From an uncultured Candidatus Saccharibacteria bacterium (GTDB lineage: Bacteria > Patescibacteriota > Minisyncoccia > Phycocordibacterales > CAIZLB01): 53,765 bases of DNA. Positions 9,537 to 49,388 of this stretch are shown in pieces (the stretch's first letter is position 1; every line of letters begins with the position of its first letter). The translations under genes and the position numbers were made by a program. The stretch covers positions 1 through 53,765 of the forward strand of contig CAYIYJ010000001.1 of NCBI GenBank assembly GCA_964367655.1, given 5' to 3'. Under the pieces are notes generated by a model, which had not been told where the DNA came from, searched no databases, and was given only the letters and a program-made list of their open reading frames with translations.

Positions 9537-10793
9537 ATGAACGAAAAAGACACCACAAAAAAACTATCTACAGACTCCTATAAAGGGGTGCGGGATTTTT
9601 ACCCTGCAGATCTTTTTGTTCAACATTATATCTTCGAGACATGGCGAAAAGCTGTACAAACTTTTGGATATGAAGAATATGATGCATCAATCCTAGAAAA
9701 TTCTGAGATCTATAAAGCCAAGTCCGGACAAGAACTTGTGAATGAGCAAACATACACCTTTATTGACCGTGGCGAGCGAGAAGTAACTCTCCGACCTGAG
9801 ATGACACCAACCCTTGCACGTATGGTAGCAGCTCGAAAACGAGAACTTGGATTTCCACTACGACTCTTCTCTATTCCAAACTGTTTTCGATATGAACGAC
9901 CTCAACGAGGACGACTACGTGAATTCTGGCAATTAAACGTTGACCTTCTCACAAAAAAGACAGGTGTACGCTACGATGTTGAGATATTGCAAGTTGTCAC
10001 TCGTATCATGTCTGCATTCAATGCAAAACCTGAAGATTACGAGATTAAGATCAACTCTCGTTTGTTTATCAATGCTCTATATACAGAGTATTATGGATTA
10101 ACAGCGGAGACTGCTACACAATTTCAAAAACTTGTAGATCGAAAAAACAAAATCAGCCCAGAAGAGTTTGCTGCAGAATATGCAAAACTATCAAATAAAA
10201 AACTACTAGACATCAACAACCCTGACGATCTTGAGACTATAAAAGCATTACCCGGTGCCCAAGCTCAATTTGAAGCGATAGTTGAAGTTATGAGTTTGTG
10301 TGCTGAGGCTGGTATTACAAATATCACGTTTGATGTAGATGTAGTTCGAGGTCTTGATTATTATACAGGGCTTGTATTTGAAGTATACGACACCAACCCT
10401 GAAAACAATCGAGCTCTTTTTGGAGGCGGACGTTATGACAACTTGGTCGACATGTTTGAAGGGCCAACAGAAGAAACAACCATCTCAGGTATTGGTTTTG
10501 GTATGGGCGATGTTGCTATGGCAAACTTTTTAGAATCACGAGGATTGGTTCCAACATACACTGCCAAGACAGATACACTTGTATGTGTACTCGATGAATC
10601 AGAAAATATATTATCGTATGCAGATGAAGTCGCATCAGAACTAAGAACTGAAGGAAAAAATGTAGCTGTTAACTACACAGCCCGTAAATATCCCGACAAT
10701 GTAAAACTTGCAGAAAAACTTGGTATAAAAAATATCGTTGTAATTGGAGAAAAAGAAGTGTTGGAGAAAAAGTTTGAGGTTAAAAGTCTATAA
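9537..10793 (+). CDS. hisS: histidine--tRNA ligase
   Basis: 418 aa with class II motifs (LRPEMTPTLAR, FRYERPQRGRLREFWQ, GGGRYDNL, GFGMGD) and a C-terminal anticodon-binding domain. Confidence 0.93.
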   Translation: MNEKDTTKKLSTDSYKGVRDFYPADLFVQHYIFETWRKAVQTFGYEEYDASILENSEIYKAKSGQELVNEQTYTFIDRGEREVTLRPEMTPTLARMVAARKRELGFPLRLFSIPNCFRYERPQRGRLREFWQLNVDLLTKKTGVRYDVEILQVVTRIMSAFNAKPEDYEIKINSRLFINALYTEYYGLTAETATQFQKLVDRKNKISPEEFAAEYAKLSNKKLLDINNPDDLETIKALPGAQAQFEAIVEVMSLCAEAGITNITFDVDVVRGLDYYTGLVFEVYDTNPENNRALFGGGRYDNLVDMFEGPTEETTISGIGFGMGDVAMANFLESRGLVPTYTAKTDTLVCVLDESENILSYADEVASELRTEGKNVAVNYTARKYPDNVKLAEKLGIKNIVVIGEKEVLEKKFEVKSL

Positions 10794-29438: not shown

Positions 29439-29652
29439 GCACGAAGAGCAAGTGCTAATGCACTTGCGTGGGAGACTTGAAGGGCTTTGTGATGTTTTTG
29501 AGGATTCGAAGAATCTGAAAAAACCACAAAGGCGTACTGGTCCTGTAAGGACCAAGTCTCTATACTTTGGCATAAAAAATTCCCCAGAGGCATCCTAAGT
29601 CTTTGTTAGACCTTGGAATACCTCTGAGGATTGAACGGACTCTGTTGTCTCC

Positions 29653-35874: not shown

Positions 35875-36447
35875 TTATAGCATTTTTTCAGAACTATCTA
35901 TTGCAGAATTTACAAAATCAATCCAAACTTTCTCGGTATCTATAGGTGCATAGAATATATATTCAGCTACCCCCTTATAATCAACATGTAACCTCCCTCC
36001 TCCACACAGTCCCGTCCCCTCATCACAAGAATATAAAGAATAGTATCCGGTTATACCGTCATGCAATGATACAGGGATCATACGGTCATCAAACTCTATC
36101 TTTCCGTTAGAATTTCCAACCTCAATAGCAGCCAACTCACAATGTGTTCCACCAGTCTCATCACATCCCTCTTCGTCACTAAATGTTATTTTGTAACCAC
36201 CACTATTAAAAGAAAGTGTCCCGTAGACAGGATATTCCTTTTCATTTGGAAATGAAAGCATTGGTACTTTCAAAGGGACTATCTTCGGAATCTTCGAATT
36301 TGGAAACGTATCTTCTATCTTATTCAACAACTCACTGCGATTGTTAACCGTTGCCATAAAGGTTGAAGAGGTGCTCTGTGCGGGTTTGTGTTGGGAAACG
36401 GCATAAAATACCAGGAGTAGTGTGATTAGTGAGAGGGTGATTTTCAT
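35875..36447 (-). CDS. secreted orphan protein
   Basis: I prefer the start MKITLSLITLLLVFYA (36447), 8 nt after TGaTACAAT. It has a signal peptide. Confidence 0.6.
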   Translation of the reverse strand: MKITLSLITLLLVFYAVSQHKPAQSTSSTFMATVNNRSELLNKIEDTFPNSKIPKIVPLKVPMLSFPNEKEYPVYGTLSFNSGGYKITFSDEEGCDETGGTHCELAAIEVGNSNGKIEFDDRMIPVSLHDGITGYYSLYSCDEGTGLCGGGRLHVDYKGVAEYIFYAPIDTEKVWIDFVNSAIDSSEKML

Positions 36448-36505
36448 ATTATTTGATTGTATCAAATTTGTAATACTCTTTATTTCTTCTTCAATTTGGT
36501 TTTAT

Positions 36506-36525
36506 GTCCCACTCGGGTGGGTCAA
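36506..36525 (-). repeat. junction repeat, degenerate copy (stop-proximal block only)
   Basis: GTCCCACTCGGGTGGGTCAA resembles the TCGACCCCACTCGGGC / TTGACCCCACTCGTGCGGGTCAA blocks of the full copies. It lies directly after the stop codon at 36529. Confidence 0.45.
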
Positions 36526-36528
36526 TAT

Positions 36529-37134
36529 TTACTGCGTAACAGTAAAACCAACCCTATTACTCTGGACCTGATTTTTAGAGCCGTCTTCACTCATCGATAT
36601 ATATATCTCATATGTTCCAGGCACAACTTTAGCAGGATACGGATCACAACCGACGGACATATTCACAGGGATACTCTCTCTCACACTCGTACAGCCACTA
36701 TTGATTATGTCTGGGACAACATACATAATCTGCTTTGAACCTTCAGGTATGTCATATATATAACTTGCAGTGTCAGATGTATTTTTAAAATTAACACGAA
36801 CCTTATTGGATGCATTCATGTGTGGTACAGTTGCGGACAGATAGATAACAATATTTGCACCAGCAGGACCAGAAGTTTTACTAAGAGAGATCACTGGAAA
36901 CCCTTTATTCGTAGTTGCTGAAGATCTAATAATGGTTTTTTTCGTAGAAGTAGAGACATTTTGTGACTGAAGTTTTTGTCCTTCTAATCGTGCAGGTGTC
37001 GATGTAGCAAACCACTGATAAGTAAGGCTGTCTGAAGTTGTACCTGTATTACCATAATATAGAGAAATGCCTATAACGATAGCAATCACAATAACGGCCA
37101 CGAGACCAGTAAAACCTTTTTGATATGTTTTCAT
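36529..37134 (-). CDS. secreted/anchored orphan protein with a pilin-like leader lacking Glu5
   Basis: I prefer the start MKTYQKGFTGLVAVIVIAIVIG (37134), 6 nt after TGcTACAAT. Confidence 0.6.
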   Translation of the reverse strand: MKTYQKGFTGLVAVIVIAIVIGISLYYGNTGTTSDSLTYQWFATSTPARLEGQKLQSQNVSTSTKKTIIRSSATTNKGFPVISLSKTSGPAGANIVIYLSATVPHMNASNKVRVNFKNTSDTASYIYDIPEGSKQIMYVVPDIINSGCTSVRESIPVNMSVGCDPYPAKVVPGTYEIYISMSEDGSKNQVQSNRVGFTVTQ

Positions 37135-37142
37135 ACATAAAT

Positions 37143-37178
37143 TGTAGCACTGATAGCCTCTCTCAAACAGTTGACCCC
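37143..37178 (-). repeat. junction repeat, short promoter-proximal copy
   Basis: The + strand reads tgtagcactgatagcctctctc, matching tgtagcattgataacccctctcg at 38047-38069. Confidence 0.5.
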
Positions 37179-38060: not shown

Positions 38061-38090
38061 CCCCTCTCGTGCTAGCTCTAATTGGCGGGC
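38061..38090 (-). repeat. junction repeat, short copy
   Basis: The + strand reads CCCCTCTCGTGCTAGCTCTAATTGGCGGGC, near-identical over the 23-nt CTCGTGCTAGCTCTAATTGGCGGG core to 45911-45933 and similar to 44054-44076. Confidence 0.7.
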
Positions 38091-38118
38091 ATCACTTACC
38101 TATTTAATCCTTTCACCA

Positions 38119-39300
38119 TTAAAACAATCCAACAAACTGATCTCCATATACATGCTTCAGAGAAGCATACAATTCCTTTGCTGTACAACCTATACCCTCA
38201 ATAACAACCTGTCCGTAATCAGGATGATTAACCACATGCCTAGATTCTATTAATTGAGGATGTTGTGCACCTGCATCTAAAAATAATGGATAGTAGGTAC
38301 TTAGAATATCATCTTCTTCAAGTTGAAGCCTAGCACAGTATAGTTCACCTGCATAAGGATGATGATCTTGCTGTCGACTATCTTTATTTACCGTCCAAAA
38401 GAGGGTACCGTCCGGATCAAGTGGATCAAAATCTTCACTATCTATTATCAATCTAAATTTAGTACCACTGTCAATTTTATCAAGAACTAAAGAAAGTTTC
38501 TCCATATCAGATCTTTCAACCTGTTCAGAATACGGCTGAGGAGAACCTAAAATATTTGTAGACCAGTAGTGAACATTTTTAAGACTATCGATGTTAATCT
38601 TTCCAATATCAAGCTTAGAATGTGGTAGCTGATCCATATCTCCTAATAACCACCCCTGCTGTATCTCAGTTATTTGATTCTCCCTTAGCTCCCTAATATT
38701 TCCCCCTATTCTTTCTCCTGGAATCACTCTTTTTTCAAATTGAAGCCCTCCAATATCTGCCCATGGATCTTTTTTAACTCGATGTAATTCCATAGACATA
38801 ACCCCTGACTCTAAACCTTCTTGTTGCGGAATAACATCAAATATTTCCGTATCCTCAACAGACAGCTTCTCAGCTACAAAAGTACACCACTCTGACAAAT
38901 CTACACCTACAGGAATTGAAGAAAAAAAATCATATAAATCATGATATCCTGTTTTACCCAAACCAGAACTTCTCTCTTCAATCTCATCGAATATTTTACC
39001 CAACAAAGTACCATGTAGTCTTGTGGGAACATAATCAGTAAAACACATAGTCTTGATACTTTCTGCCAAAGCATCTAACGCTCTTCCTTTCTCCCTCTCA
39101 TTTAAAAAAAGAATCTGCCGCCGATCTGTATTTTCACTAGTACTAATTTTATGAATTCTAGCTTCTCGATACCGTTGATATTCAGAGCCGACACCGAGAG
39201 AAAAGATCTGTTTATGTAAATTTATTCTTTGCGTATGGTCAGATTCTGATCTTAGACGCTTAGCAAGATCATTTCGAAACTCCTGATGCATATTTTCCAT
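38119..39300 (-). CDS. orphan protein, 393 aa
   Basis: Long ORF with TGgTATAAT 7 nt upstream of the ATG. No family recognised. Confidence 0.65.
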   Translation of the reverse strand: MENMHQEFRNDLAKRLRSESDHTQRINLHKQIFSLGVGSEYQRYREARIHKISTSENTDRRQILFLNEREKGRALDALAESIKTMCFTDYVPTRLHGTLLGKIFDEIEERSSGLGKTGYHDLYDFFSSIPVGVDLSEWCTFVAEKLSVEDTEIFDVIPQQEGLESGVMSMELHRVKKDPWADIGGLQFEKRVIPGERIGGNIRELRENQITEIQQGWLLGDMDQLPHSKLDIGKINIDSLKNVHYWSTNILGSPQPYSEQVERSDMEKLSLVLDKIDSGTKFRLIIDSEDFDPLDPDGTLFWTVNKDSRQQDHHPYAGELYCARLQLEEDDILSTYYPLFLDAGAQHPQLIESRHVVNHPDYGQVVIEGIGCTAKELYASLKHVYGDQFVGLF

Positions 39301-39396
39301 ATTTAATATTATACCACTAAAAGAGATACCTGTAGTACCTTGACTGTATCAGCAGGTACTCAATTAAGCCACTGTCTGCCTCTCCTCCTGTAAAAC

Positions 39397-40173
39397 TCAT
39401 ACTTTATTTAGCTGTTCAACCAATTGATGTAATCGATTTATTAATTCATTTTGGAAAGATGCTACCTTGTCTTCTCCTGGAGCTTGCATAATAACTTCAG
39501 GCTCCTCCTGGCTAGCTTGCCGTATAGATATAACAATATTATTCAGAAATCGATACCCTTCTGCGCCATCAAAGGCACTCATTAATTCATTTATTTTTAC
39601 ACGTAGCATGCTTATCGCAGCTTCATCAAAACCCTTTAATTGCTTGGCATTGTTAGCAAGACGATACTCGCTTAATGGCTCCCAGAAACCTCCAAACCAA
39701 TCAAAATCAAAAAACACATGCCCGTTTTCCCCTACCCTAATATTGTGAAGAGGATCCTCATCGTTTGGCAAAAGATGGTCCGTATCGTGAAAAACATTTG
39801 TCAGTATGAATATATCTGTCTTTAGCGGCATCAAAAGATCCGAGCGTATGTCCCTAACGCTTTCATTTTTTATAGATAGCACATTTGAATAAAACCATTT
39901 TTGTCCACCTGTATTTTCAACACAGACAACATCCGACACTGGAATGATGCCCTTGAGCATTCTCGTCAGAAGCATTTGATCCGCGCCACGTTCGAAGCCC
40001 TCTCCGCCATATAATTTTCGGCCAGTTGAATCCTCGACCATATCGAGAGGGATCCGACTTTCCAGTGCCCGCGGACCAGAATCACCTTTTACCGTCAGCT
40101 CTTCGACTCGAATAATTGAAGACAGACCGTCTTCTTGTTCTGTATTTTTTGATTTCGGAAATTCTTGAGACAT
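39397..40173 (-). CDS. orphan protein with a possible kinase-like catalytic signature
   Basis: 258 aa. TDHLLPN (DxxxxN) is followed 18 residues later by DFD, reminiscent of the kinase/APH catalytic and Mg loops. This is a weak motif-level call only. TGgTACAAT lies 7 nt upstream of the ATG. Confidence 0.6.
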   Translation of the reverse strand: MSQEFPKSKNTEQEDGLSSIIRVEELTVKGDSGPRALESRIPLDMVEDSTGRKLYGGEGFERGADQMLLTRMLKGIIPVSDVVCVENTGGQKWFYSNVLSIKNESVRDIRSDLLMPLKTDIFILTNVFHDTDHLLPNDEDPLHNIRVGENGHVFFDFDWFGGFWEPLSEYRLANNAKQLKGFDEAAISMLRVKINELMSAFDGAEGYRFLNNIVISIRQASQEEPEVIMQAPGEDKVASFQNELINRLHQLVEQLNKV

Positions 40174-40196
40174 ATCGAATATTGTACCAGACTTAT

Positions 40197-40250
40197 CTCT
40201 CGAGTGCCCGAATGGGATACCTCACTCGGGCAGATCAAAAAGTGACAAAC
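40197..40250 (-). repeat. junction repeat, variant copy
   Basis: It shares tcaaaaagtgacaaa with 46166-46180, cactcgggc with the other copies, and gaatgggatacc with 45191-45202. Confidence 0.55.
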
Positions 40251-42563
40251 TTACAACTGACGAGTAAAGGGATTATCAGTCATAGGTTTATATTCGTCAA
40301 CCAGAGGATCTCCTTTATACCTTACCTGATTAAAGCCAACAGCCACACAGTCATCACCGCCAGTATGACCATCAACTAACACGCCGTCTACCATTCTCAA
40401 ATATTTTAACCCTGACTCACCCTGAGTTGGATCTTCCACAATAAACATTGTACCTTCATATGTAGACATATCGTTCTTCAGCAATGAATCAACCTCATCC
40501 TTTTCAAGAGGGCGGAGTCCTAATTTGTTAAGGTTAGACAAAACCTCCTCACTAGAGAACTCTTGATATTCTTCATAATCCCCTGCAATATTTTGAGCCT
40601 CTGTGATACAAAATGGCAAGGTGAGAACTTCACAAGTTTTACCACCTGTAGTAAATGTCCTGGATCTAATTACAGATTGTATCGCTGTTCTCAAACCACA
40701 GTCAAAAAACTTAATTGATGCATTCGACGGAAAAGTACTAAAATAATTCCTACGGAACTTTGAGAATTCAGTCTTAAGGACAGGGCCTCTATGCAGTAGT
40801 GTTTTAGTGTCAGGACTCAAAGGATCTAAACCACAAAAAGAAACTGAATTTCTTTCTGCTTCATCTAATTTTACCCCCCTGAAGATTTCAGGTAAAACCA
40901 ATCGTGATGCTGTAGATAAATTTTGCAGGTCAAGTATGCCGTGAATTTTTTTTGGCAAAACAATATCAGATTCGTCTTCGGTACAAATTGACAGCCCCCC
41001 AACCTCCTCTGACAAAGTAAGATCTTTTACAGATTCAACTTCTAAAATTAACATCCTGCCCACTTTTTGTGGAAGTACAATACTTTCCAAAGAACCTTTT
41101 TTATGCAAATGGACATCACTTTTCGCATATTTCGGCAAGACTGGCCTACTATCAAAATCCCAGTTATCCTCGTCCAAATCGACAGTAGTGTAGATGACGT
41201 CTTTCGCAATCAAATCTTCAGATGAAAGGGCAATTTGATTTTGATCACAGTCCAAAGCTTTTGATAATTCTGTTCTCAGACCAAGTCTGACCGCCAATAT
41301 TTCTGATATTCGCGGATCAGTCTCATATCCAAAACCTTGAATTGGCCCATTGAGTTCAAACAAAAACTCAACTTCATCGAAACTTAATTTCGAATCACAT
41401 ACGATCTTTTCTTTGGTATTTTTATCAACCTTAAAACATTTTTCATAAATCGCCGTCAACATTTTCATATCACGATCAGCTTTCTCATATTGTTCCGCAC
41501 CATCCAGTTTAGAGTAATGTTCTTTCGCGATATCAATCAGCACAGGCTCAAGAGCTTGACCGGGATCAACCCCTCGTATCTCAGCAACGTTTTGCACATT
41601 ATTATAATTTTCCATTCTCACTGCAATTCGAGGTTCAGTTGGAATACCAGCCTTGTTTTTTGTATAGAACACATGAAAATCACCAGAAGCAAGTTGTCCT
41701 TCTGCTGATCCTGAAGCTGTACACCAACCCGTACCCTTACCCTTAAGCCCTCTTTCTAGTTCTCTATAATCAGAACCTTGAGGATATATCACCCATTCTC
41801 CCTCTAGTGATTCACGATCAAGATTTCCAGCACATTCAACTTGAGCAAAGGCATACAGTTTGGAAAAGTCTTTTGAGGCAAGTCTTTTATCAAGCTCTTT
41901 TTCTAATTCATCCTTTCTCTCAGTATTCAATTCTAAACCCTCTTTCTCGAGTTCACCTATCAGCGCTCTGAATACGAACCTTAAAGATTCTGCATTTGCC
42001 TCTGGAAAAGGAGCAACTGTCTTTTCTGTTCTTGTAGAATAGCTCATGCTACCACGATTGAATTGACCCATCTTTTTAAGCGACCGGACAACGTAATATT
42101 TAAACCATATCGGATAACCTTCTCCTTCTTTGAGATATGTAATCCACGATTGCAAAGATCTTTTCTGGATTTGAGCCTTCTCAATTATTGATTCCTTGTA
42201 TCGTTTAAAAATTTCTTCACCATCTAACCTTTTGATATCACCACCTCTACCCTGATCGATAGCTATTTTCTTTTCAGATTCATATAAGTCTTGCGCAAGT
42301 GATCTCACAAGATCTTCATCTTGAACATTCAATATATAATCATCGGTGATTGATTCCTCAATCATCTTTACGACAGACGGTCGTTTTTTCATGATCCTAT
42401 CAAGACCTCTGAGATACCGATCGATAGTTGCATGCTTAGATTTTTTTTGAGGCAAATGCTCTTTTTTGGTTGTATATTCAGCCAAAGTCTGAGCTTCTTC
42501 AGATGTATGTATATCTTGGAATTTTTGTCCAAGGAATTCTGTGCCGTTGAAGGATTCTTTCAT
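40251..42563 (-). CDS. large orphan protein, 770 aa
   Basis: Long uninterrupted ORF with a KGTGWCTASGSAEGQLASGDFHVFYT segment. No family assigned confidently. TGaTACAAT lies 9 nt upstream of the ATG. Confidence 0.7.
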   Translation of the reverse strand: MKESFNGTEFLGQKFQDIHTSEEAQTLAEYTTKKEHLPQKKSKHATIDRYLRGLDRIMKKRPSVVKMIEESITDDYILNVQDEDLVRSLAQDLYESEKKIAIDQGRGGDIKRLDGEEIFKRYKESIIEKAQIQKRSLQSWITYLKEGEGYPIWFKYYVVRSLKKMGQFNRGSMSYSTRTEKTVAPFPEANAESLRFVFRALIGELEKEGLELNTERKDELEKELDKRLASKDFSKLYAFAQVECAGNLDRESLEGEWVIYPQGSDYRELERGLKGKGTGWCTASGSAEGQLASGDFHVFYTKNKAGIPTEPRIAVRMENYNNVQNVAEIRGVDPGQALEPVLIDIAKEHYSKLDGAEQYEKADRDMKMLTAIYEKCFKVDKNTKEKIVCDSKLSFDEVEFLFELNGPIQGFGYETDPRISEILAVRLGLRTELSKALDCDQNQIALSSEDLIAKDVIYTTVDLDEDNWDFDSRPVLPKYAKSDVHLHKKGSLESIVLPQKVGRMLILEVESVKDLTLSEEVGGLSICTEDESDIVLPKKIHGILDLQNLSTASRLVLPEIFRGVKLDEAERNSVSFCGLDPLSPDTKTLLHRGPVLKTEFSKFRRNYFSTFPSNASIKFFDCGLRTAIQSVIRSRTFTTGGKTCEVLTLPFCITEAQNIAGDYEEYQEFSSEEVLSNLNKLGLRPLEKDEVDSLLKNDMSTYEGTMFIVEDPTQGESGLKYLRMVDGVLVDGHTGGDDCVAVGFNQVRYKGDPLVDEYKPMTDNPFTRQL

Positions 42564-42587
42564 AATATGGGTATTGTATCAAATTAA

Positions 42588-42718
42588 GCTCTCATACGCT
42601 CTTGTTGGCGGGCCGACTCGTGCTAGAACCGTGGGCGGTTAAGGTCTGTAATGTCCGTTGGGGATATTGTAACATAGCTGACTCGACCCCAATCGGGCGT
42701 GTCAAAAAGTGATACAGG
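42588..42718 (-). repeat. junction repeat, full copy A
   Basis: + strand blocks: ttggcgggccgaCTCGTGCTAGaaccgtgggcggttaag ... gtccgtt ... tcgaccccaatcgggc ... gtcaaaaagtga. Confidence 0.8.
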
Positions 42719-42779
42719 TTGAGGTACTAAGAGTTATAGTTAAATGTCACTTTCTAAGAAACAAAACTGTCCTTTCCTA

Positions 42780-43397
42780 TTAGAACTTCACAGAGCCTTT
42801 AATCTTGTCCAATGCTTCCTGCGATATGCCGATTTTGGTAGCTGGTTCGAAGAATCCGACTACACGAACAGAAGGTACGATAATCATTTCTGCGCCAGTG
42901 TCATTCGAATAGTAGATTCCATTATACTCACTCAGCATCTTTAAGGTATAAGCCGAATTTTTCTCTGGGTTCGCACTGTCATATGCTTGCTGGTTGTCAT
43001 ATCGCACAAGAGAAAGAACTTCTTTGCCGTTGAAATATACAGTTAAACCTTTGGCATCCTTATGTGTTCTTGAAAAATTCGTTGTATATGTAAAATTATC
43101 CGGTACAGTTACAGAAAAGCTATTTACTGAAACAACCTTTGTCTGAGCTGATGGTGTTGTAGAGACCTTTGTAGGTGCGACAATTTGGTTTACAGAGGGG
43201 TCTGTCTGACCAGGAGTGAGAGTAGAAGAGGCTGAACTATTATTCTGTGTATCACGCGTATCACTCACAGTTTCAGAATTCACCATGACATTATCACCAT
43301 TTTGCTGCATATACCAGTATGTACCTCCGATTCCTAGCACAAGAGCAATGATGACTGCGACAATGATTCCAGTAAAACCATTTTGTTTATTTTTCAT
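42780..43397 (-). CDS. secreted/anchored orphan protein with a pilin-like leader lacking Glu5
   Basis: I prefer the start MKNKQNGFTGIIVAVIIALVLG (43397), 9 nt after TGaTATAAT. Confidence 0.6.
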   Translation of the reverse strand: MKNKQNGFTGIIVAVIIALVLGIGGTYWYMQQNGDNVMVNSETVSDTRDTQNNSSASSTLTPGQTDPSVNQIVAPTKVSTTPSAQTKVVSVNSFSVTVPDNFTYTTNFSRTHKDAKGLTVYFNGKEVLSLVRYDNQQAYDSANPEKNSAYTLKMLSEYNGIYYSNDTGAEMIIVPSVRVVGFFEPATKIGISQEALDKIKGSVKF

Positions 43398-43443
43398 AAT
43401 AATCAAATTATATCATTAAATTAAATATACCACTACTATATAA

Positions 43444-43484
43444 CCCCTCTCAGGTGCCCTTGTTGGCGGACCTACTCGTGCAGG
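43444..43484 (-). repeat. junction repeat, short copy
   Basis: The + strand reads cccctctcaggtgcccttgTTGGCGGAcctaCTCGTGCAGg, i.e. only the tRNA-3'-like block and the CTCGTGC block. Confidence 0.6.
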
Positions 43485-43488
43485 TAAA

Positions 43489-44040
43489 TTAACCTAAAAT
43501 ACTCTTCAGATCTAATTCCAGATTTTTGAATAGAATCTTGTTCTTGGCATGTCCTGTAGGGTTAACGGGTGACGGGTGAAAAATTGGAAAAACTTTATAT
43601 GTTTTATTTCCGAACTTAATATTCAAAATTTCTCCCATAACTAAGTTTTGATCAATTATTTTCGATAAAATACTTGTAGTCTGTACGCCTAAAATTATCA
43701 ATAATTCATATTCTTGATCTTTAATTTGTTCTAAAAAAATTGGCCAACATTTTTTACCACAAGATTCAAGCTCTGTTCGTTTTGAAACAAAACACTTTGA
43801 TAGTTCTGTAAATCCACTATTTTCGACAGAAAGACCAAAAGGTTCTAAAAGTTCATTTAACCTCTTTCCTGTTGGAAGTATTTTTCCATCAGGGCGATAA
43901 CAAGCCTTACCAGATAAAATCCAACCATTTGGTGCAGGAGACTCTCCAACAATTAACAACTTTTCTCCTTTTCCCACACCTAGCTGATGAAACTTTTCCA
44001 AAGGAAATTTTTTTATATCGTGACAAACATGATTTTTCAT
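43489..44040 (-). CDS. uracil-DNA glycosylase superfamily protein (family 4/5-like)
   Basis: 183 aa with LLIVGESPAPNGW (motif A-like GE.P.) and FHPSPVNP (motif B HPSP). Confidence 0.6.
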   Translation of the reverse strand: MKNHVCHDIKKFPLEKFHQLGVGKGEKLLIVGESPAPNGWILSGKACYRPDGKILPTGKRLNELLEPFGLSVENSGFTELSKCFVSKRTELESCGKKCWPIFLEQIKDQEYELLIILGVQTTSILSKIIDQNLVMGEILNIKFGNKTYKVFPIFHPSPVNPTGHAKNKILFKNLELDLKSILG

Positions 44041-44050
44041 ATATTTATTA

Positions 44051-44167
44051 TGTCTCGTACTAGCTCTAATTGGCGGGTCGATTCGGGCTGGAACCGTGGG
44101 TGGTTAAGCCCTGCTTAGTCCGTTTTGGATATTTCCATAATACCACATCGACCCCACTCGGGCAGCC
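44051..44167 (-). repeat. junction repeat, full copy B
   Basis: + strand blocks: ctcgtactagctctaaTTGGCGGGtcgattcgggctggaaccgtgggtggttaag ... gtccgtt ... tcgaccccactcgggc. Confidence 0.8.
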
Positions 44168-44179
44168 TAGATTAATGAT

Positions 44180-45127
44180 TTATAGACCGCCTTGCAATCC
44201 AATTTCCGGAAAAGAATTCGAGTCTATTTCCAAATCAGAAATATACTTATGCATGCACGAGAGCATAACTTTTTTTCTCCATTCCCATCGGGCCGAGTAC
44301 ACCTCATCCTTTTCATACGAGAGTGCCCATATCGATTTCAGGAAAATAAAATCATTTTTGAAATCAGAAATATTAGAAATATTGTATTTTTTACACAACA
44401 TGTCAATTTGATCAAAGTAGGACGTAAGTTGTTCATTTGAAAAATCCCATAATTTCATCGTTCCTGAGCCGTTTGGTTTAGGGTGATCCCAAAATTTTTG
44501 GAATACCACCCCTGTAACAATGTCATATCCAAATGGCATCATGACACGAGTTTCAAAATCAATAACTCCACCTTCCATTATATTAAAAGGGGTGAAATCT
44601 CCGTGACTAATCACCACAGGAAGTAAGTTTGTACGTTTTTTAAATTTTTCCATCGCCGTGTTTATAAGATCTTCGGGAAGATCCGGATTCTCGAGTAGCA
44701 CATTTCCTAGTTGAATCGCTTCGACCAACTGAATTGTTTCTAACTCGCGGTTTGAGTTATCAAGCTGAGCAACAGCAAATAACTTTACAGTCTCAGTGAA
44801 CTTTTTAAAAAGATCATCATTTATTTTTCCTATATCCCTGTAATCCGAGGCAAACATTTCACCAAACGTCTTGTTGCCAACCGATGTCTCAACAAAATAT
44901 GAAACTTCTCCATCTATTTCACCCCTCTCTACAGGTGCAGGGATCGGAAAACCAACATGGTACAATTTCTGTGCAAAATCTGCTTCATTTTGAATCTCAT
45001 CTTTTCCACCAGTTCTCAGAATGTACTTCGAATCTTGCGAGCGATAAACAGCGCCCGTCCTTACCAAAGCCCCTCTGTTCTTGATGAGGATCCATTCATC
45101 TAAATTGATCGGTTTTTGATATGACAT
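44180..45127 (-). CDS. aminoglycoside/choline-kinase-like phosphotransferase (APH family fold)
   Basis: ISHGDFTPFNIMEGGVIDFETRV matches the HGDxxxxN ... IDxE pattern. I prefer the start MSYQKP (45127) because the track extension runs into the repeat. Confidence 0.65.
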   Translation of the reverse strand: MSYQKPINLDEWILIKNRGALVRTGAVYRSQDSKYILRTGGKDEIQNEADFAQKLYHVGFPIPAPVERGEIDGEVSYFVETSVGNKTFGEMFASDYRDIGKINDDLFKKFTETVKLFAVAQLDNSNRELETIQLVEAIQLGNVLLENPDLPEDLINTAMEKFKKRTNLLPVVISHGDFTPFNIMEGGVIDFETRVMMPFGYDIVTGVVFQKFWDHPKPNGSGTMKLWDFSNEQLTSYFDQIDMLCKKYNISNISDFKNDFIFLKSIWALSYEKDEVYSARWEWRKKVMLSCMHKYISDLEIDSNSFPEIGLQGGL

Positions 45128-45185
45128 TGAATAATTAATTATATAGTAAATTAGATGGAAATAGCTATTCCTAAAGATAATATGC

Positions 45186-45323
45186 ACCTGAATGGGATAC
45201 CCCACAGAGGCGCCTTAATTGGCGGGCGCATTCGTGCTAGAACCGTGGGGAGCAGGGCCTGTAACGTCCGTTTCGAGCATTGTGGTATGTCGCGGTCGAC
45301 CCCACCCGTGCGGGTTGAAAATC
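45186..45323 (-). repeat. junction repeat, full copy C
   Basis: + strand blocks: cctgaatgggatacc ... ccttaaTTGGCGGGcgcaTTCGTGCTAGaaccgtgggg ... gtccgtt ... tcgaccccacccgtgcggg. Confidence 0.8.
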
Positions 45324-45325
45324 TA

Positions 45326-45877
45326 TTAAATTTGAGACTGTTGTTTTTCTCTAAATTCCTCTGACATCTTTGCCAAAGAATCAAAATCTGTGGCACCAAT
45401 ATCCCAAGAGTCCAACCCTTCTGCAATTATCACTCGCCCATCTTGTTCGATATTTGCATTTTCATTTCTTGCAGATGGATCGATCACTTTCCATTCAACC
45501 CCATTTTGTATTCCAACATACACATGTCCATTGATAGGACGTCCTCCATTCTTAAGCCACGTAAGATCAAGGGTTTCGATATATTTTGTTGGAATACTTA
45601 ATGCCCGGGCAAGTGCTATAAATACAAGTGCATCATCAGTACAACCTGTTACGTATCCATCGGTAATAATTTGAGATGCTGTCCTCTTTCGAAACACTTC
45701 ATTTTTATTTTCAGTTTGATATCTGAGAGTTCTTAAAAACTGAACCATCTGATGAATTTTCTGTTCGGTTGTTCCCTCGAAGGAACGAGCAATTTCAAGA
45801 ACTGCGGGAGTAATCACCGTCTGCTTCCCGGATTCTAAATATTTTTCAAAATTTTCTTGTTTTGGTGATTCTATCAT
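45326..45877 (-). CDS. transglutaminase-like cysteine protease-fold protein
   Basis: GYVTGCTDDALVFIALARALSIPTKYI (Cys), NGHVYVG (His) and KVIDPS (Asp) form a Cys-His-Asp arrangement. Confidence 0.65.
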   Translation of the reverse strand: MIESPKQENFEKYLESGKQTVITPAVLEIARSFEGTTEQKIHQMVQFLRTLRYQTENKNEVFRKRTASQIITDGYVTGCTDDALVFIALARALSIPTKYIETLDLTWLKNGGRPINGHVYVGIQNGVEWKVIDPSARNENANIEQDGRVIIAEGLDSWDIGATDFDSLAKMSEEFREKQQSQI

Positions 45878-45890
45878 TTAATTTTATGAT

Positions 45891-45926
45891 AGCACGAGAC
45901 GACCACCTCTCTCGTGCTAGCTCTAA
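45891..45926 (-). repeat. junction repeat, promoter-proximal part, with a 9-bp hairpin
   Basis: AGCACGAGA-cgaccacctc-TCTCGTGCT (45891-45918), then agctctaa leading into TTGGCGGG. Confidence 0.65.
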
Positions 45927-46077
45927 TTGGCGGGCCGACTCCGACTCGAAGCTTACAGCTTCAGTACACCTTTGCGGTTTGACTCGGACAAACGTCCTCG
46001 CAAACATCGCAAAGCTTTTCGAGTCGGGGAAAAGCTACGCTTTTCCTAACTCTAACATATTGTGGTAACTGCGGGCC
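45927..46077 (-). repeat. 151-bp ORF-less structured unit, copy 1
   Basis: Identical to 49172-49322 apart from 2 mismatches. It is bounded by GGCCCGC at both ends and contains TTCGAGTCGGAGTCGGCCCGCCAA (read on the minus strand). Confidence 0.85.
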
Positions 46078-46189
46078 TATTCGTGCTAGAACCGTGGGTG
46101 GTTAAGACCTGTATAGTCCGTTTCAAGGATTGTAGCATGTCTTAATTGACCCCACTCGTGCGGGTCAAAAAGTGACAAAAGTGACAGTT
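46078..46189 (-). repeat. junction repeat, full copy D (tRNA-like end interrupted by the 151-bp unit)
   Basis: + strand blocks: (gcgggcc)taTTCGTGCTAGaaccgtgggtggttaag ... gtccgtt ... ttgaccccactcgtgcgggtcaaaaagtgacaaaagtgac. Confidence 0.8.
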
Positions 46190-46618
46190 TTAGCTCTTTT
46201 CAAGAAGGCCCTTAATCCCCTTCAAAAACTTCTCACCGTCAGATCTTTTAACTTTGTTTCTCATATCCATCACTTTATCGCGATGACAGCGTCTCAATTC
46301 CTTACCACTACCACAATAACAAGGCCAGTGGCCTTTCACTTTTTTACAAGTGTGATATTCCAGAAATTTTATAATCCCATATAAGTCACTAATACCGAGT
46401 TCTTCCTGATAAAATTCGAGATTACCTTTTATGTTATGACTTCTGGCTTTCATAGTCGGGTTGCCACTTGTTGAATCATAATCAATTTGCCAAACAAAAA
46501 AGCTTTTCACACACGTCTCAATGAATTCAAGAATATTATTTTGAGATGAATAATGCTTATACTCTTCATCTTTCAAGAACAGGCACGCATTTCCGTTCGG
46601 GTAGAAGTGTCTACACAT
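46190..46618 (-). CDS. SEC-C-motif-containing protein
   Basis: 142 aa with HWPCYCGSGKELRRCH, a SEC-C-type metal-binding motif. An in-frame stop lies 9 nt upstream of the ATG. Confidence 0.6.
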   Translation of the reverse strand: MCRHFYPNGNACLFLKDEEYKHYSSQNNILEFIETCVKSFFVWQIDYDSTSGNPTMKARSHNIKGNLEFYQEELGISDLYGIIKFLEYHTCKKVKGHWPCYCGSGKELRRCHRDKVMDMRNKVKRSDGEKFLKGIKGLLEKS

Positions 46619-46895
46619 ACCACCCTATTTCAAACCGTGATCTGAAACATTCTCGATATGTAGATACTGGATTCGGCAGCAGGAAACCTTGATCTCCCGC
46701 ATATTCGCCTATTACCGGGTATCAGCATATCATAATTTATATAAGGGAACACTTATGCAAAGCAACAAAAATAGCCCAAGCACGACATGTGCAAGGGCTG
46801 GAAGTTTTTTAACGCTGTATCTTCCCGAGCGTTTGGCGATAAATCGCCGAAGAGCAAAGTTCAAAGTGACCAAGGAGGTCACAGTGGCAAAGCTC

Positions 46896-47597
46896 TTAGG
46901 GCTTACTTGCGAGAGACAACGCAGGACTGTAGGCACTACGGTCGTAGTCGAGCCAGCTGTAGCTCCAGCCCCACGAACCGCCACCCTGACGATCGAGGTA
47001 CAGGGCACCACGGCGGCCATCGGAGCGCCGCAGAGTGGTACCCAGCAGCTCGAACCAGGTGATACCGAGGGTGTCGAGCCAACGGAGCGTCTTTTGCCCC
47101 TCCTCCTCAAAAAGCGCCTGACCGATGCGAGCATCGGCTTGGATCGCTTTGGCGATGAGGCGGGCGCGCTTTACTTCGCTCGTGACGACTGTTTCCGACC
47201 CTTCGAGTCCTGTCAGGAAGTTTGCTTCTTTGGTCATGCCTCTGAAGTCCACTTCCTTGAGGGCAAGCGATCGCTTGTCCTGTTCCTCGTCACCCTTGAG
47301 ACCGTCACCTTTGGCAGGGCCTTTCCAGATCGTCCAGCCGCTACCCACGAACGTGGAAGGGTTGAATGTTGCGGGAAGGACCAACGGGCCGGTGGGCGGT
47401 TCGACGACAACTTTCACAGGCTCGGGAAGAGCGGGGACCTCATACCCATTGATATGGGCGGTGATCCAAGCGTTGAACTCGGCCGGCGGCAGATCGAGAA
47501 TGAGTTGGGTTTTGTCTTTGTCCCATCCGCTTCGTTCCCCAGCGTTGAGGAAAAGGGCTGCGAATTGGCGATGTTGTTTTTCAGTGGCTTGAGCCAT
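46896..47597 (-). CDS. GC-rich orphan protein, likely horizontally acquired
   Basis: 233 aa from MAQATEKQHRQF; the track ORF extends to 47693. The coding body has ~38 G+C per 60 nt by my counts at 46921-46980 and 47341-47400. The composition is plausible for a protein and is Trp-rich. The hairpin GTGACC-tcct-TGGTCAC follows the stop codon. The overlapping + strand ORF reads as Arg/Ala/Thr-rich low complexity. Confidence 0.55.
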   Translation of the reverse strand: MAQATEKQHRQFAALFLNAGERSGWDKDKTQLILDLPPAEFNAWITAHINGYEVPALPEPVKVVVEPPTGPLVLPATFNPSTFVGSGWTIWKGPAKGDGLKGDEEQDKRSLALKEVDFRGMTKEANFLTGLEGSETVVTSEVKRARLIAKAIQADARIGQALFEEEGQKTLRWLDTLGITWFELLGTTLRRSDGRRGALYLDRQGGGSWGWSYSWLDYDRSAYSPALSLASKP

Positions 47598-47914
47598 TGC
47601 GTAGTCTGGGTTACTAAATCCTTCAAAGTGGTACGTTCCAAGATAGGCTCTTGGAAAATGACGTATCACTCCGAATGTTTTTCGCCTCAGCATTTCACAT
47701 CTTATAAAATAAGATTCAAAATGCTGAAGCGAATTCGCAAGTTATTTCAAGGTACTTTATGCTATATATTATACACCACAAATGCCATATATGTCAATAT
47801 GCGGGTTTTGGGCTAAATTAGCCTGAAAAATAAAGGTATTTTGACGCGACCACACTACGTATTCCCTATTCTGCATAGCTATGCAGGGTTTACAGGTCTG
47901 TCATTAATTAATAT

Positions 47915-49024
47915 ATGCAACAGCTCGGTATAAATGCCCAGATACGGATGGCGGAGATAGTGCCACAAGCAAGAGTGAAGTACTGCCTCTATGCAAGAAA
48001 ATCTACAGAATCGGATGAGAAACAAGCTCTATCAATCGAATCGCAAGTAAAGGAAATGCTGCAGATTGCCGAACGAGATGGTTTGGAAATAATTGATATT
48101 CGAAGAGAATCCCACTCAGCCAAAGATTCAGGCCAACGTCCTGTATATAAAGAATTGTTGGAAGATATACGAAGACAAAGATTCAATGGAATTCTGACTT
48201 GGGCGCCAGACAGACTTTCCAGAAATGCGGGCGATCTTGGATCAGTCGTAGATTTGATGGATCAAGGATTATTATCTGAAATTAGAACCTATGGACAACA
48301 GTTCAGAAATTCACCTAATGAAAAGTTTCTACTAATGATTCTCTGCTCTCAGGCAAAATTAGAGAACGATAATAAGAGCATAAACGTGAAGCGTGGGATG
48401 AGAACTCGTTGCGAAATGGGATTGTGGCCAGGGAGAGCACCGACTGGATATCTGAGTGAAAAGAGGATAGATAGGAAATGTCAGGTATACATAGATCCAG
48501 AGCGAGGCCATATCATCAAGAGCATATTTGAAAAGGTTGCATATGAAAAGTGGACTGGCAGAAAAATAATGCACTGGCTCAAATTCGATCTGAATTTCAG
48601 GACGGCTTGCGGACATAAGCACATGAGTCTGGGTAATATCTACACCCTGCTCGAAAATCACTTCTATTATGGAGTATTTGAATACCCTTCAAAAAGCGGA
48701 AACTGGTACACAGGCAAACATGAACCCCTCATAACAAAAGAATTATTCGAACTAGTGCAATCTCAGATCAAAAGCCAAATCCTTCGCACTGGAGAGCCTA
48801 AAGAGTTCGCGTTCACCAAGCTCATGGCTTGCGGATTATGCGGATCAGGTATCTGTGCAGATGAGAAATTCAAGAAGCTGAAAGACGGATCGGTTAACAG
48901 GCATATCTACTACGCCTGTACCAGAGCAAGAAATCCGGACTGCAAGCGAGAGTACATAAATGAACCCGATTTGATAGAACAATTCATAAGACTCATGGAT
49001 GAGAGTTCATATAAATCATACTAA
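47915..49024 (+). CDS. large serine recombinase, probably C-terminally truncated
   Basis: Resolvase-type catalytic N-terminus (YARKSTESDEKQALSIESQ ... RLSRN), a recombinase domain, and a zinc ribbon (CGLCGSG ... YYACTRARNPDC). It stops ~25 aa after the last Cys. That is where large serine recombinases normally continue with a coiled coil, and all three frames are closed downstream. Confidence 0.8.
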   Translation: MQQLGINAQIRMAEIVPQARVKYCLYARKSTESDEKQALSIESQVKEMLQIAERDGLEIIDIRRESHSAKDSGQRPVYKELLEDIRRQRFNGILTWAPDRLSRNAGDLGSVVDLMDQGLLSEIRTYGQQFRNSPNEKFLLMILCSQAKLENDNKSINVKRGMRTRCEMGLWPGRAPTGYLSEKRIDRKCQVYIDPERGHIIKSIFEKVAYEKWTGRKIMHWLKFDLNFRTACGHKHMSLGNIYTLLENHFYYGVFEYPSKSGNWYTGKHEPLITKELFELVQSQIKSQILRTGEPKEFAFTKLMACGLCGSGICADEKFKKLKDGSVNRHIYYACTRARNPDCKREYINEPDLIEQFIRLMDESSYKSY

Positions 49025-49082
49025 CAGAAATACATAACCCTTAACAGCTTCCCTAACACAATAAAAAATGTGCGGTTTGAGC

Positions 49083-49171
49083 TCAGTAACCTTAGGTTCT
49101 AAGCCCGAGTGGGGTCGAAATTCAGACCTTCAAAATATCCTTAAAAACTAGCCTATTCGTGCTAGCACGAG
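49083..49171 (+). repeat. junction-repeat fragment in inverted orientation, with a 14-nt perfect palindrome
   Basis: GCCCGAGTGGGGTCGA (49103-49118) reads on the + strand here, whereas it reads on the minus strand in every other copy. It is followed by cctatTCGTGCTAGCACGAg, with the palindrome at 49157-49170. Confidence 0.7.
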
Positions 49172-49322
49172 TTGGCGGGCCCACTCCGACTCGAAGCTTA
49201 CAGCTTCAGTATACCTTTGCGGTTTGACTCGGACAAACGTCCTCGCAAACATCGCAAAGCTTTTCGAGTCGGGGAAAAGCTACGCTTTTCCTAACTCTAA
49301 CATATTGTGGTAACTGCGGGCC
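49172..49322 (-). repeat. 151-bp ORF-less structured unit, copy 2, abutting tRNA-Trp
   Basis: See copy 1. Its right-hand GCGGGCC (49316-49322) is the 3' acceptor end of the tRNA. Confidence 0.85.
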
Positions 49323-49388
49323 CACTCCGACTCGAACGGAGAATTGCGCGTTTGGAGTGCGATGTTTTACCATTGAAACTATAGGCCC
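49317..49388 (-). tRNA. tRNA-Trp(CCA), with a weak anticodon stem
   Basis: Manual fold, 72 nt: acceptor GGGCCTA/TGGGCCC, D arm GTTT-CAATGGTA-AAAC, anticodon loop CTCCAAA and T arm CTCCG-TTCGAGT-CGGAG. The anticodon stem TCGCA/CGCGC has only 3 Watson-Crick pairs. CCA is not encoded. Confidence 0.65.

Follow-up and report, generated by a model that had tools for sequence, protein, structure and literature searches.

A candidate composite island with repeated junctions beside a serine recombinase gene at the 3' flank of tRNA-Trp in a Patescibacteria genome

Layout of the island and the repeated 10-mer

The stretch analysed here (the window) comprises 53,765 nucleotides of DNA from an uncultured Candidatus Saccharibacteria bacterium (GenBank assembly GCA_964367655.1, contig CAYIYJ010000001.1), and its part between 38,066 and 49,170 contains a row of small genes, a truncated gene of a large serine recombinase (LSR) and repeated copies of the 10-mer YTCGTGCTAG, one of which belongs to a perfect palindrome next to the LSR gene. 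This part lies directly 3' of a chromosomal tRNA-Trp gene, and we consider it rather probable that it represents a composite integrative island in a Patescibacteria (candidate phyla radiation, CPR) genome; we likewise lean towards a content of one decayed LSR element (~45.9-49.17 kb, recombinase truncated) and at least five recombinase-less cassettes of one or a few genes. The 10-mer marks cassette boundaries and is most likely the site where DNA is joined by a serine recombinase that is very widespread. All island genes between 38.1 and 46.6 kb are encoded on the minus strand, as are tRNA-Trp, tRNA-Tyr and ClpB, and every cassette gene is followed, after a few to ~70 nt, by a conserved module, here termed X, or by a remnant of it. 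The repeats comprise three CCGCCAATTAGAGCTAG(C/T)ACGAG junctions, four full X copies, three X remnants and one truncated LSR gene (Table 1). The order ClpB-tRNA-Tyr-tRNA-Trp is common to the window, L123, L124, L135, L137 and L138 (L-numbers denote loci of relatives or other genomes, P-numbers homologous recombinase proteins), and ClpB was used as the anchor to find genomes syntenic with the window. The tRNA-Trp scores low (48 bits) and has two non-canonical pairs in its anticodon stem; because its sequence is unchanged in L123, L135, L137 and L138, it is probably functional and not a pseudogene.

The plus strand holds six copies of the 10-mer (38066, 42617, 45231, 45911, 46080 and 49156), and one further match on the minus strand is the second half of the palindrome; this total of seven compares with 0.12 expected and was reached in none of 100 shuffles. 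Extended core versions of 18 and 23 nt recur with 0 expected. No copy of the core was found in the remaining 42 kb of the window, and it is for this reason not a general promoter element. An initial annotation of this DNA had listed these copies, two variants (ctcgtactag at 44054 and ttcgggctgg at 44082) and the palindrome, all of which we confirmed, and it had overlooked a degenerate copy at ~43472-43481 (actcgtgcag). It had also joined the core to three different right-hand partners, and the positions of all three types were right: flank 1 (CTCTAATTGGCGGG) follows at 38076, 44064 and 45921, with a 23-mer containing it found three times against 0 expected, flank 2 (AACCGTGGG.GGTTAAG) follows at 42627, 44092 and 46090, and flank 3 (CACGAGTTGGCGGG) at 49166. 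At 45241, however, only the first ten bases of flank 2 (AACCGTGGGG) agree, the remainder being GAGCAGG.

The notion of three different partners had to be given up. On the gene strand, the 10-mer reads CTAGCACGAR and stands in two contexts: within module X, whose interior is the source of flank 2 (AACCGTGGG), and 7-8 nt past a tRNA-like 3' end with CCA (..CCGCCA), which is the source of flanks 1 (CTCTAA) and 3 (CACGAG). The sequence ..GCCCGCCA-A-TTAGAG-CTAGCACGAG occurs three times in the window and equals flank 1, and ..GGGCCCGCCA-A-CTCGTG-CTAGCACGAA on the tRNA-Trp side equals flank 3 plus the palindrome. Because both represent a tRNA-like 3' end with CCA before the core, flanks 1 and 3 are, as judged from their sequences, homologous, each being made up, as reverse complement, of a tRNA-like 3' end ..GGCCCGCCA-A and 6-7 variable nt. 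The LSR gene has its stop codon at 49024, 133 nt before the start of the palindrome, whose extended arms match at 10 of 12 positions.

Table 1. Features of the island and its surroundings, with the positions of the P and Z inserts in the window and in other loci
Feature	Position	Strand	Basis or remark
Perfect 14-nt palindrome TCGTGC-TA-GCACGA (TCGTGCTAGCACGA)	49157-49170	strandless	Exact match check; junction of tRNA-Trp 3' end (..GGGCCCGCCA-A-C) and recombinase element
tRNA-Trp (CCA anticodon), island anchor	49316..49388	-	ARAGORN, Rfam; tRNA-Tyr and ClpB just beyond
P element copy 1, 121-nt structured insert	49196..49316	-	20-nt direct repeat TTCGAGTCGGAGTGGGCCCG on either side
Element-end module X-inv, inverted partial copy of X 5' half (GCCCGAGTGGGGTCGA..AAATATCC..)	49103..49156	+	Runs into the palindrome
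Truncated LSR gene, 369 aa	47915..49024	+	Pfam Resolvase, Recombinase, Zn_ribbon_recom
Cargo gene, apparently decayed, E2-like fragment, 142-aa open reading frame	46190..46618	-	PADLOC E2 5e-31, profile positions 76-213 of 216; X copy H directly after
X copy H	46069..46170	-	nhmmer E=2.7e-21; GTCACTTTTGTCACTTTTTGA (46165-46185) before; 10-mer at 46080 inside
P element copy 2 (45951-46071), tRNA-Trp-like 3' fragment with CCA (45931-45950) and junction	45892..46071	-	10-mer at 45911
Cassette: transglutaminase-like gene (45326-45877) and X copy G (45219-45320; 10-mer 45231)	45219..45877	-	Pfam; nhmmer E=2.9e-14
Cassette: APH-like phosphotransferase gene, X copy F (44070-44170) and junction variant CTAGTACGAG (44054-44063)	44054..45205	-	Pfam; nhmmer E=4.4e-21
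Cassette: UDG-family gene (43489-44040) and X 3' remnant (43444-43483: CTGCACGAGTAGGTCCGCCAA and CAAGGGCACCTGAGAGGGG)	43444..44040	-	Pfam; sequence
Cassette: 208-aa gene and X copy D (42606-42707; 10-mer 42617)	42606..43406	-	nhmmer E=5.8e-19
Cassette: 770-aa gene and X 5' remnant (GTCACTTTTTGA and GCCCGAGTGAGGT, ~40219-40250)	40207..42563	-	blastn 74-77% to L135
Two more island genes, 258 aa and 393 aa	38119..40173	-	Without Pfam, PADLOC or NCBIfam matches
Distal island boundary GATGCCCGCCA-A-TTAGAGC-TA-GCACGAGAGGGG; 10-mer 38066	38061..38093	-	Native promoter and 71-aa gene beyond
P-related insert after tRNA-Leu	~29440-29565	+	No Rfam match
P elements elsewhere	L135:13173-13316; L135:17385-17502; L138:16978-17110		No Rfam match
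Z element, GC-rich, ~200 nt	L060:2630-2845; L122 ~10300-10515 (-); L124:13985-14176		Terminator hairpin, then GACGAGAAAGCCGGACGC...GGCGAAGCGCGACAAGGAGGCGGGGTCGA

Within the island, X-inv forms a 16-nt perfect inverted repeat with 44148-44163, X copy F carries the variant core at 44082, and the region 45892-46071 belongs to a 181-nt repeat that is 94% identical to 49157-49337. The repeat TTCGAGTCGGAGTGGGCCCG is present at 49317-49336 within tRNA-Trp and, displaced and followed by CCA, at 49176-49195. Beyond P copy 2, the junction reads ATTAGAGC-TA-GCACGAGA..TCTCGTGC-TA, with the 10-mer at 45911 included in a 26-nt hairpin unit (45892-45917). The fragment at 46190-46618 looks like a decayed defence gene, as it resembles the C-terminal two-thirds of the PADLOC E2 defence-associated proteins. 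At the distal boundary, the promoter context GAGAGGGG..TGCTACAAT is found again at 37128-37164, before a paralogue without any repeat.

Junctions, module X and the recombinase in other genomes

The junction at tRNA-Trp is conserved in relatives. L123, L124-126 and L127 encode full-length LSRs whose proteins are 92-96% identical to that of the window, and in these loci the LSR gene (plus strand) is followed by 4-9 kb of unrelated cargo (metal resistance), an X-inv of ~55 nt, TTCGTGC-TA-GCACGAG and TTGGCGGGCCC, the 3' end of tRNA-Trp; their palindrome is identical to that of the window and is located 1 nt past the encoded CCA. Homology of such relatives to the window covers 47842-49000 and then jumps to 49095-49198, and in comparisons with L123, L124 and L127 the element-end block is 91-94% identical, ClpB DNA 69-75%, the LSR gene ~81%, and the neighbouring genes overall 69-82%. 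Elements end at tRNA-Gln in L129 (CCA-AGTCGTGC-TA-GCACGAGACGCGTCG, with TA-GCACGAG), at tRNA-Asn in L140 (CCA-ACTCGTGC-TA-GGTCATC), and at tRNA-Gln with diverged cores in L131 and L139; across the other LSR lineages, the tRNA at the element end is always convergent and is one for Gln, Asn, Ser, Asp or Glu. Dyads analogous to the palindrome of the window were found in L129, L002, L004, L018, L112 and L159, the latter having 9-bp arms and lying right after tRNA-Glu. On the other side of the LSR gene, an outward-pointing X stands 1.7-10 kb upstream (window, L128, L131, L140, L147). A viral collection contained 51 loci with LSR relatives (49-76% identity), 14 of which have a downstream tRNA; the first such tRNA is convergent in all 14, often 60-140 nt past the LSR stop codon or at the end of the contig or predicted provirus.

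In distant Patescibacteria as well, the pattern ..CCGC(C)A, 7-8 nt and CTAGCACGAR follows genuine tRNA-Ser in L002 (CCA-AG-TCGTGCTAGCACGA-GG) and L112, tRNA-like fragments in L004, L018, L071, L111 and L106, and X copies in L004, L013, L018, L059, L106 and L112. With the sites anchored at CTAG, information is maximal over CTAGCACGA, moderate at -13 to -9 (acceptor end) and -5 to -1, and about zero beyond +9. tRNAs unlinked to islands end without CCA and run into a terminator. A scan of a genome collection with the 18-mer gave mostly chance matches in high-GC genomes and ~15 true Patescibacteria loci, the composite pattern found a single locus in metagenomes, and a scan of viral contigs for the core gave two chance matches. 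These loci directly show how the island is built, that this anatomy is conserved and that the LSR is associated with tRNA 3' ends.

The LSR of the window contains the Pfam domains PF00239 (5e-19), PF07508 (1.4e-11) and PF13408 (9e-7) in the order of large serine recombinases, and its YARKST motif, including the serine, does not vary in an alignment of the family. Of the named families, CcrB, XisF and CcrC come nearest, each with a score far under its NCBIfam cutoff (CcrB 2.4e-32 and 112 bits against a cutoff of 900; CcrC 62 against 900). A family search gave at least 8000 matches, the best 120 of which are 73-96% identical to the window copy, with labels that include Parcubacteria and even the archaeal 'Woesearchaeota'; the exact sequence of the window LSR was not on record in an exact look-up. 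Between X and the LSR gene, there is often a set consisting of an S24/LexA-like repressor, a ParB-N6/N4 methylase, a small gene and a TerL-like gene, and the cargo of LSR elements is mostly defence (CBASS, restriction-modification, Gabija-like, Dnd-associated, diversity-generating retroelements (DGRs)) or metal resistance. The conservation of the family and this neighbourhood suggest a recently spreading satellite- or phage-like element. A further perfect palindrome of 16 bp, CTGCATAGCTATGCAG, is located at 47871-47886, ~30 nt upstream of the LSR start codon, and is kept in L123, L124 and L127, where it may serve as an operator or as another binding site of the recombinase.

Module X spans ~100 bp with the layout GCNCGAGTGGGGTCGA ... 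AACGGAC ... CAGGGCTTAACCNCCCACGGTT-CTAGCACGAG-TCGGCCCGCCA, and in the window its four full copies (nhmmer E 3e-14 to 4e-21) are accompanied by 3' or 5' remnants in two cassettes and at 38076-38093. An alignment of 24 sequences across Patescibacteria revealed strong sequence conservation, with CCCACGGTTCYAGCMCGAG nearly invariant. X is always downstream of a co-oriented open reading frame (ORF), has a TGnTAAAAT-like box in its centre, and is in at least eight copies directly followed by an intrinsic-terminator hairpin. Because many single copies precede such a terminator, transcription through X is likely, and X may be part of 3' untranslated regions (3' UTRs). The bases past CGAG co-vary in parallel in the 5' and 3' boxes of X (GAGAC/GAGAC, GAGGA/GAGGT and GAGTG/GAGTC between lineages), a pattern more in keeping with recurring binding sites, or with half-sites that were exchanged, than with a helix. 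The 24-sequence alignment gave no support for a fold, with hand-built hairpin measures reached by 110 to 467 of 500 shuffles, and RNAalifold found 0 compensatory pairs in a Saccharibacteria-type subset. Rfam and ARAGORN, used at gathering and permissive thresholds (the latter for 37.9-49.5 kb and L060), found nothing but three tRNAs in the window, and neither X nor the P element matches any curated Rfam covariance model. A tRNA, tmRNA, signal recognition particle RNA, RNase P RNA or riboswitch was ruled out for X by these empty searches and by folds without covariation, and an attC-like hairpin was ruled out as conserved inverted ends are lacking. A tandem GTCACTTTT GTCACTTTTTGA is located directly upstream of X in the window (46165-46185, 42702-42711, 40235-40244) and in L060, L122, L018, L103, L106, L128, L131 and L140, and is thus kept across very distant Patescibacteria; it may be the binding site of a regulator or accessory protein.

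Same-orientation arrays of two to three X copies, 0.5-3 kb apart and with accessory genes between them, are found in L106, L112, L013, L018 and L004, and at the ClpB-syntenic loci L135 and L138 too. In L135, with a ClpB 86% identical to that of the window, collinearity extends from ClpB across tRNA-Trp and the P insert to the displaced tRNA fragment and stops at 49171, 1 nt from the palindrome; beyond this point L135 has different cassettes (two methyltransferases, a 681-aa gene, an acetyltransferase) that are separated by X plus CCAATT(A/C)GAGCTAG(C/T)ACGAG. In L138, tRNA-Trp-CCA-A-GAAGAGC-TA-GCACGAGAGGGG is followed by a gene-X-gene-X array with cassettes that differ from those of L135. L137 has a bare tRNA-Trp (..GGGCCCGCAC-AATG..) without encoded CCA, core or X, and was rejected as an empty attB, as it shows a tRNA without a site instead of an unoccupied palindrome. 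The 770-aa gene of the window has its orthologue in the 681-aa gene of L135, with X before both. At the junctions of these cassettes, L135 contains a 28-nt unit, TAGCACGAGAGAGATGTCCGTCTCGGGC, which begins with TA-GCACGAG and which the window lacks; hairpin units of a similar kind, GCACGAGA-N10-TCTCGTGC, stand past the core at 45892-45917 and in L135. With the exception of the 770-aa gene, which matches L135 at the DNA level, no homologues of the window's cassette proteins were found in any of the loci compared, and cassette movement can therefore not be traced by cargo.

Inserts of another kind lie at the same spot. The P element (~120 nt) is located directly past a tRNA or X and ends in 18-20 nt that repeat the 3' end of its host tRNA, followed by CCA. 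Its fold, predicted by RNAalifold from six sequences, has 38 pairs, 12 of them compensatory, and one helix pairs with the tRNA fragment, co-varying between the Trp and Leu versions; this predicted fold appears well supported. At the position of P copy 1, L123 and L127 lack P, and their tRNA runs straight into the palindrome. The Z element is conserved in three contigs, has no Rfam match, and sits as P does, with tRNA-Trp or X on one side and a displaced 3' fragment of tRNA-Trp on the other. On either side of P and Z, 18-20 nt of the tRNA 3' end are repeated in host-specific form; the cassette boundaries consist of X plus core and not of tRNA fragments.

A candidate joining site and its rivals

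In the explanation that we favour, the LSR would catalyse exchange at the core, with TA as the crossover, and cassettes would be moved in trans. C-TA-GCACGAR would be the conserved core, chiefly its right arm, of the site where elements of a single LSR family are joined to the DNA of the host, and the full site would consist of a tRNA or tRNA-like 3' end (..CCGC(C)A), 7-8 nt and CTAGCACGAR, most commonly as the dyad TCGTGC-TA-GCACGA. In tRNA orientation, tRNA and junction would be followed by a short inverted end resembling X, by cargo in some elements, by the LSR gene in convergent orientation to the tRNA, and then by accessory genes, X and core. The 3' end of X would imitate a tRNA acceptor end, with a second core ~28 nt past the internal copy, and because this distal junction (X 3' end plus core, ..GCCCGCCA-A-TTAGAGC-TA-GCACGAG) resembles the original target, tandem addition of elements or cassettes would be possible. 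On its left side, the outer junction of the window is CTCGTGC-TA/GCTCTAATTGGCGGG, on its right side GCCTATTCGTGC-TA/GCACGAGTTGGCGGG, and the outer halves of the two combine to a hypothetical target tRNA-Trp-CCA-A-CTCGTGC-TA-GCACGAG-AGGGG, a 16-bp palindrome of the type seen by tRNA-Ser in L002. The model's partners of the core would be the tRNA-Trp 3' end with CTCGTGCTAGCACGAG and X with TTAGAGCTAGCACGAG; it predicts the empty site tRNA-Trp-CCAACTCGTGC-TA-GCACGAGAGGGG and the circular joint X-TTAGAGC-TA-GCACGAATAGGC.

What the initial annotation had proposed agrees in part with the comparative data. A shared core with alternative partners is indeed found at the boundaries of inserted DNA, and the suggested link between core and serine recombinase is borne out by the palindrome between LSR element and tRNA-Trp in L123, L124 and L127 and by the analogous ends in L129 and L140. 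These comparisons likewise single out the palindromic version of the core as special. As in att sites, dyad half-sites (the 14-bp palindrome) are placed at the element-host junction beside the recombinase gene. The breakpoints of similarity do cluster at CTAG, as at least 25 aligned sites break directly 5' of CTAG and just past GCACGAR. The half-site exchange that had been proposed at CTAG is thus supported in part, by the shared core and its alternative partners, but a crossover at CTAG or TA is not established, as the shared identity hides its position. The palindrome had been taken for the symmetric parental site, which is not established either; from the comparison of relatives, it is best described as the conserved tRNA-proximal junction of the integrated element.

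Several findings weigh against exchange by the LSR at the core. The recombinase of the window has 369 aa, and its homology to the ~440-aa relatives (P0001 and P0002 with 442-443 aa, P0055 and others) ends near residue 362, so that the last ~80 residues of the C-terminal region are missing and activity of this copy is not to be assumed; the C-terminal region of LSRs (coiled-coil and C-terminal segment) is needed for synapsis. In characterised LSR sites, a non-palindromic central dinucleotide fixes polarity, and the dyad centre here is TA. The sequence GC-TA-GCACGA is common to all arms and too long to place the crossover, which could be elsewhere in the shared GCTAGCACGA, and the left arms (CTCGTG, TTAGAG, CTAACAG, GAAGAG) are far more variable than the right, which would not be expected of a simple symmetric site for a dimer. 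In more distant LSR lineages, the tRNAs are followed by other sequences, the X-array loci of the genome scan have no LSR within the 2-8 kb of sequence covered at each, and the arrays of L135 and L138 have none within 10 kb. For no single element were recombination products, that is, empty site and circle, seen. Because the naive tRNA-Trp of L137 has no site, crossover at a pre-existing CTAG leaves the first colonisation of a tRNA unexplained, and judging from this locus CCA and core are not ancestral chromosomal sequence. Finally, the P and Z inserts indicate that a second recombination process, within the tRNA end, acts at the same spot.

This last point leads to a serious rival for how the islands start, namely recombination within the tRNA end by a different system, which would cross over between T-loop and acceptor as tyrosine integrases do. 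CCA-N8-CTAGCACGAR would then be a carried flank, perhaps promoter-proximal, an operator or a processing signal, and the LSR would be a passenger or serve its own element only. Such a system would account for the 18-20-nt repeats of the tRNA-Trp 3' end around P and Z (window, L135, L124, L138) and for the P-like insert at tRNA-Leu, and the tRNA-Trp of L137 implies that CCA and site came with the inserted DNA; in addition, the collinearity of the window and L135 stops after CCAA, 7 nt before TA, and extended -10 promoters and short hairpins follow the core in many copies. On the other hand, no tyrosine recombinase domain was found among the genes of 12 LSR loci or the window ORFs between 33 and 53.7 kb, and a passenger LSR is difficult to reconcile with an LSR gene that abuts the tRNA junction in many independent lineages. 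The spacing between core and -10 box is not constant, which argues against a promoter signal, and the core was for this reason rejected as a -35 element. We regard recombination within the tRNA end as a rather improbable origin of the islands.

X could alternatively be a family of genes for small RNAs or of elements in 3' UTRs, the RNA having a tRNA-like 3' end and including the 10-mer; the copies would have spread by duplication and homologous recombination, and the arrays would be regulatory or terminator modules. The conservation of ~100 nt across distant Patescibacteria, the constant position past co-oriented ORFs, the terminator hairpins after at least eight copies and the central TGnTAAAAT-like box would suit an RNA, and this reading is compatible with recombination at the core. 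We nevertheless consider it unlikely, as no fold is supported by covariation (no compensatory pair in the Saccharibacteria-type set) and no Rfam family applies, as the 10-mer is also present outside X, after genuine tRNAs and at the ends of LSR elements, and as the parallel covariation past CGAG is explained less well by a helix than by recurring protein-binding sites or half-sites that were exchanged. Chance recurrence or an assembly artefact can be practically dismissed: nothing but the shortness of the motif speaks for it, and it is already refuted by the seven matches against 0.12 expected, by the 18- and 23-nt versions with 0 expected and by the same architecture in independent assemblies of several projects.

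Relation to known systems and minor observations

Compared with known systems, the closest analogue appears to be SCCmec/ECC with its Ccr large serine recombinases. Ccr elements (ECC, SCC) have multiple attR-type repeats with dyad symmetry that bound recombinase-less sub-elements in composite islands (PMC6222049). In both systems, one conserved housekeeping gene receives variable cargo at its 3' end through a large serine recombinase, att repeats have dyad symmetry around a conserved core, several direct repeats bound sub-elements without recombinase, and CcrB is the best-scoring named family for the window LSR. However, elements are inserted here directly 3' of tRNA genes (Trp, Gln, Asn, Ser and others) and not in the rlmH 3' end, a single ~440-aa recombinase takes the place of the CcrA/CcrB pair (112 bits against 900 for a Ccr equivalog), cassettes are often single genes, each with a ~100-bp conserved module with tRNA-like end, and the core is CTAGCACGAR instead of TATCATAA. 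By analogy, the system may be described as LSR cassette-chromosome-like islands that are anchored at tRNA 3' flanks and have a conserved ~100-bp end module. Literature searches on Patescibacteria, Saccharibacteria or CPR in connection with serine recombinases, integrative elements or integrons gave no description of such a system.

With the large serine integrases of phages and integrative and conjugative elements (Bxb1, phiC31, TP901-1, A118; TnpX/TndX of the transposase type), the LSR shares the Resolvase, Recombinase and zinc ribbon domains, the dyad-symmetric sites and the position of its gene next to one att site, and the repressor, ParB-methylase and TerL-like neighbours suggest a phage-derived or satellite-like element. 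It differs in that the central dinucleotide would be the palindromic TA, sites share ~10 bp of identity, junctions occur many times in tandem, and the family is unusually conserved across CPR lineages (73-96% among the best 120 of at least 8000 matches). A minority of tycheposons uses a large serine recombinase (10.1101/2020.12.28.424599). Tycheposons and other tRNA islands also lie next to tRNA genes, where successive integrations push older elements outward and leave partial tRNA copies and degraded integrases, and P and Z with their partial tRNA repeats resemble this; most repeats here are, in contrast, X plus core past the tRNA end and not tRNA fragments, and no tyrosine integrase is among the ORFs scanned. 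Integrons (IntI and attC) have in common with the arrays the same orientation, small and often single-gene cassettes, a recombination-associated module after each gene and fast turnover between close relatives. Unlike in integrons, the window ORFs between 33 and 53.7 kb include no Phage_integrase or IntI match, X is conserved in sequence and shows no covariation, whereas attC is a conserved imperfect hairpin with poorly conserved sequence, the cassettes have their own promoters, and the array is anchored at a tRNA and not at an attI beside the integrase gene. We tentatively put forward, as a doubtful proposal, that Patescibacteria have a serine-recombinase-driven, integron-like capture system, in which small promoter-bearing cassettes with X as an attC analogue, its 3' end mimicking a tRNA acceptor, would be captured and shuffled at TCGTGC-TA-GCACGA 8-10 nt past a tRNA or the previous X; each insertion would regenerate the target, arrays would grow outward from the tRNA, and one ~440-aa LSR would act in trans.

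CPR/Patescibacteria make up a large share of bacterial diversity, and their mobile DNA and genetic tools have barely been described. The analysis defines a candidate site of recombination, which is short, the place that this site takes with respect to tRNA genes, and a compact (~440 aa), highly conserved LSR family with thousands of members, and candidate site and LSR are a directly testable pair of enzyme and site. If the mechanism is true, it would explain how defence and resistance cassettes (CBASS, restriction-modification, Gabija-like, DGRs, metal resistance) build up by tRNA genes in reduced genomes, and it would provide a natural landing pad and an integrase for engineering organisms without tools.

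Some minor features of the region remain to be mentioned. Between the recombinase promoter and the E2-like fragment, the segment 46689-47816 has a G+C content of ~47% compared with ~39% around it, contains long overlapping ORFs on both strands (375 aa on the plus and 265 aa on the minus strand) without family matches, and breaks the homology to relatives upstream of 47842. Outside the island, TTGACCCACCCGAGTGGGAC at ~36505-36530 (minus strand) resembles the 5' box of X (TTGACCCGCACGAGTGGGGTC) and is located upstream of an apparently native gene (35875-36465). Extended -10 boxes (TGnTAYAAT) precede the minus-strand starts of cassette genes at 38038, 39300, 40173, 42563, 43406 and 45877 by ~7-12 nt, and these genes have no obvious Shine-Dalgarno sequence; because the boxes are so near the start codons and no such sequence is evident, leaderless or near-leaderless mRNAs are suggested.

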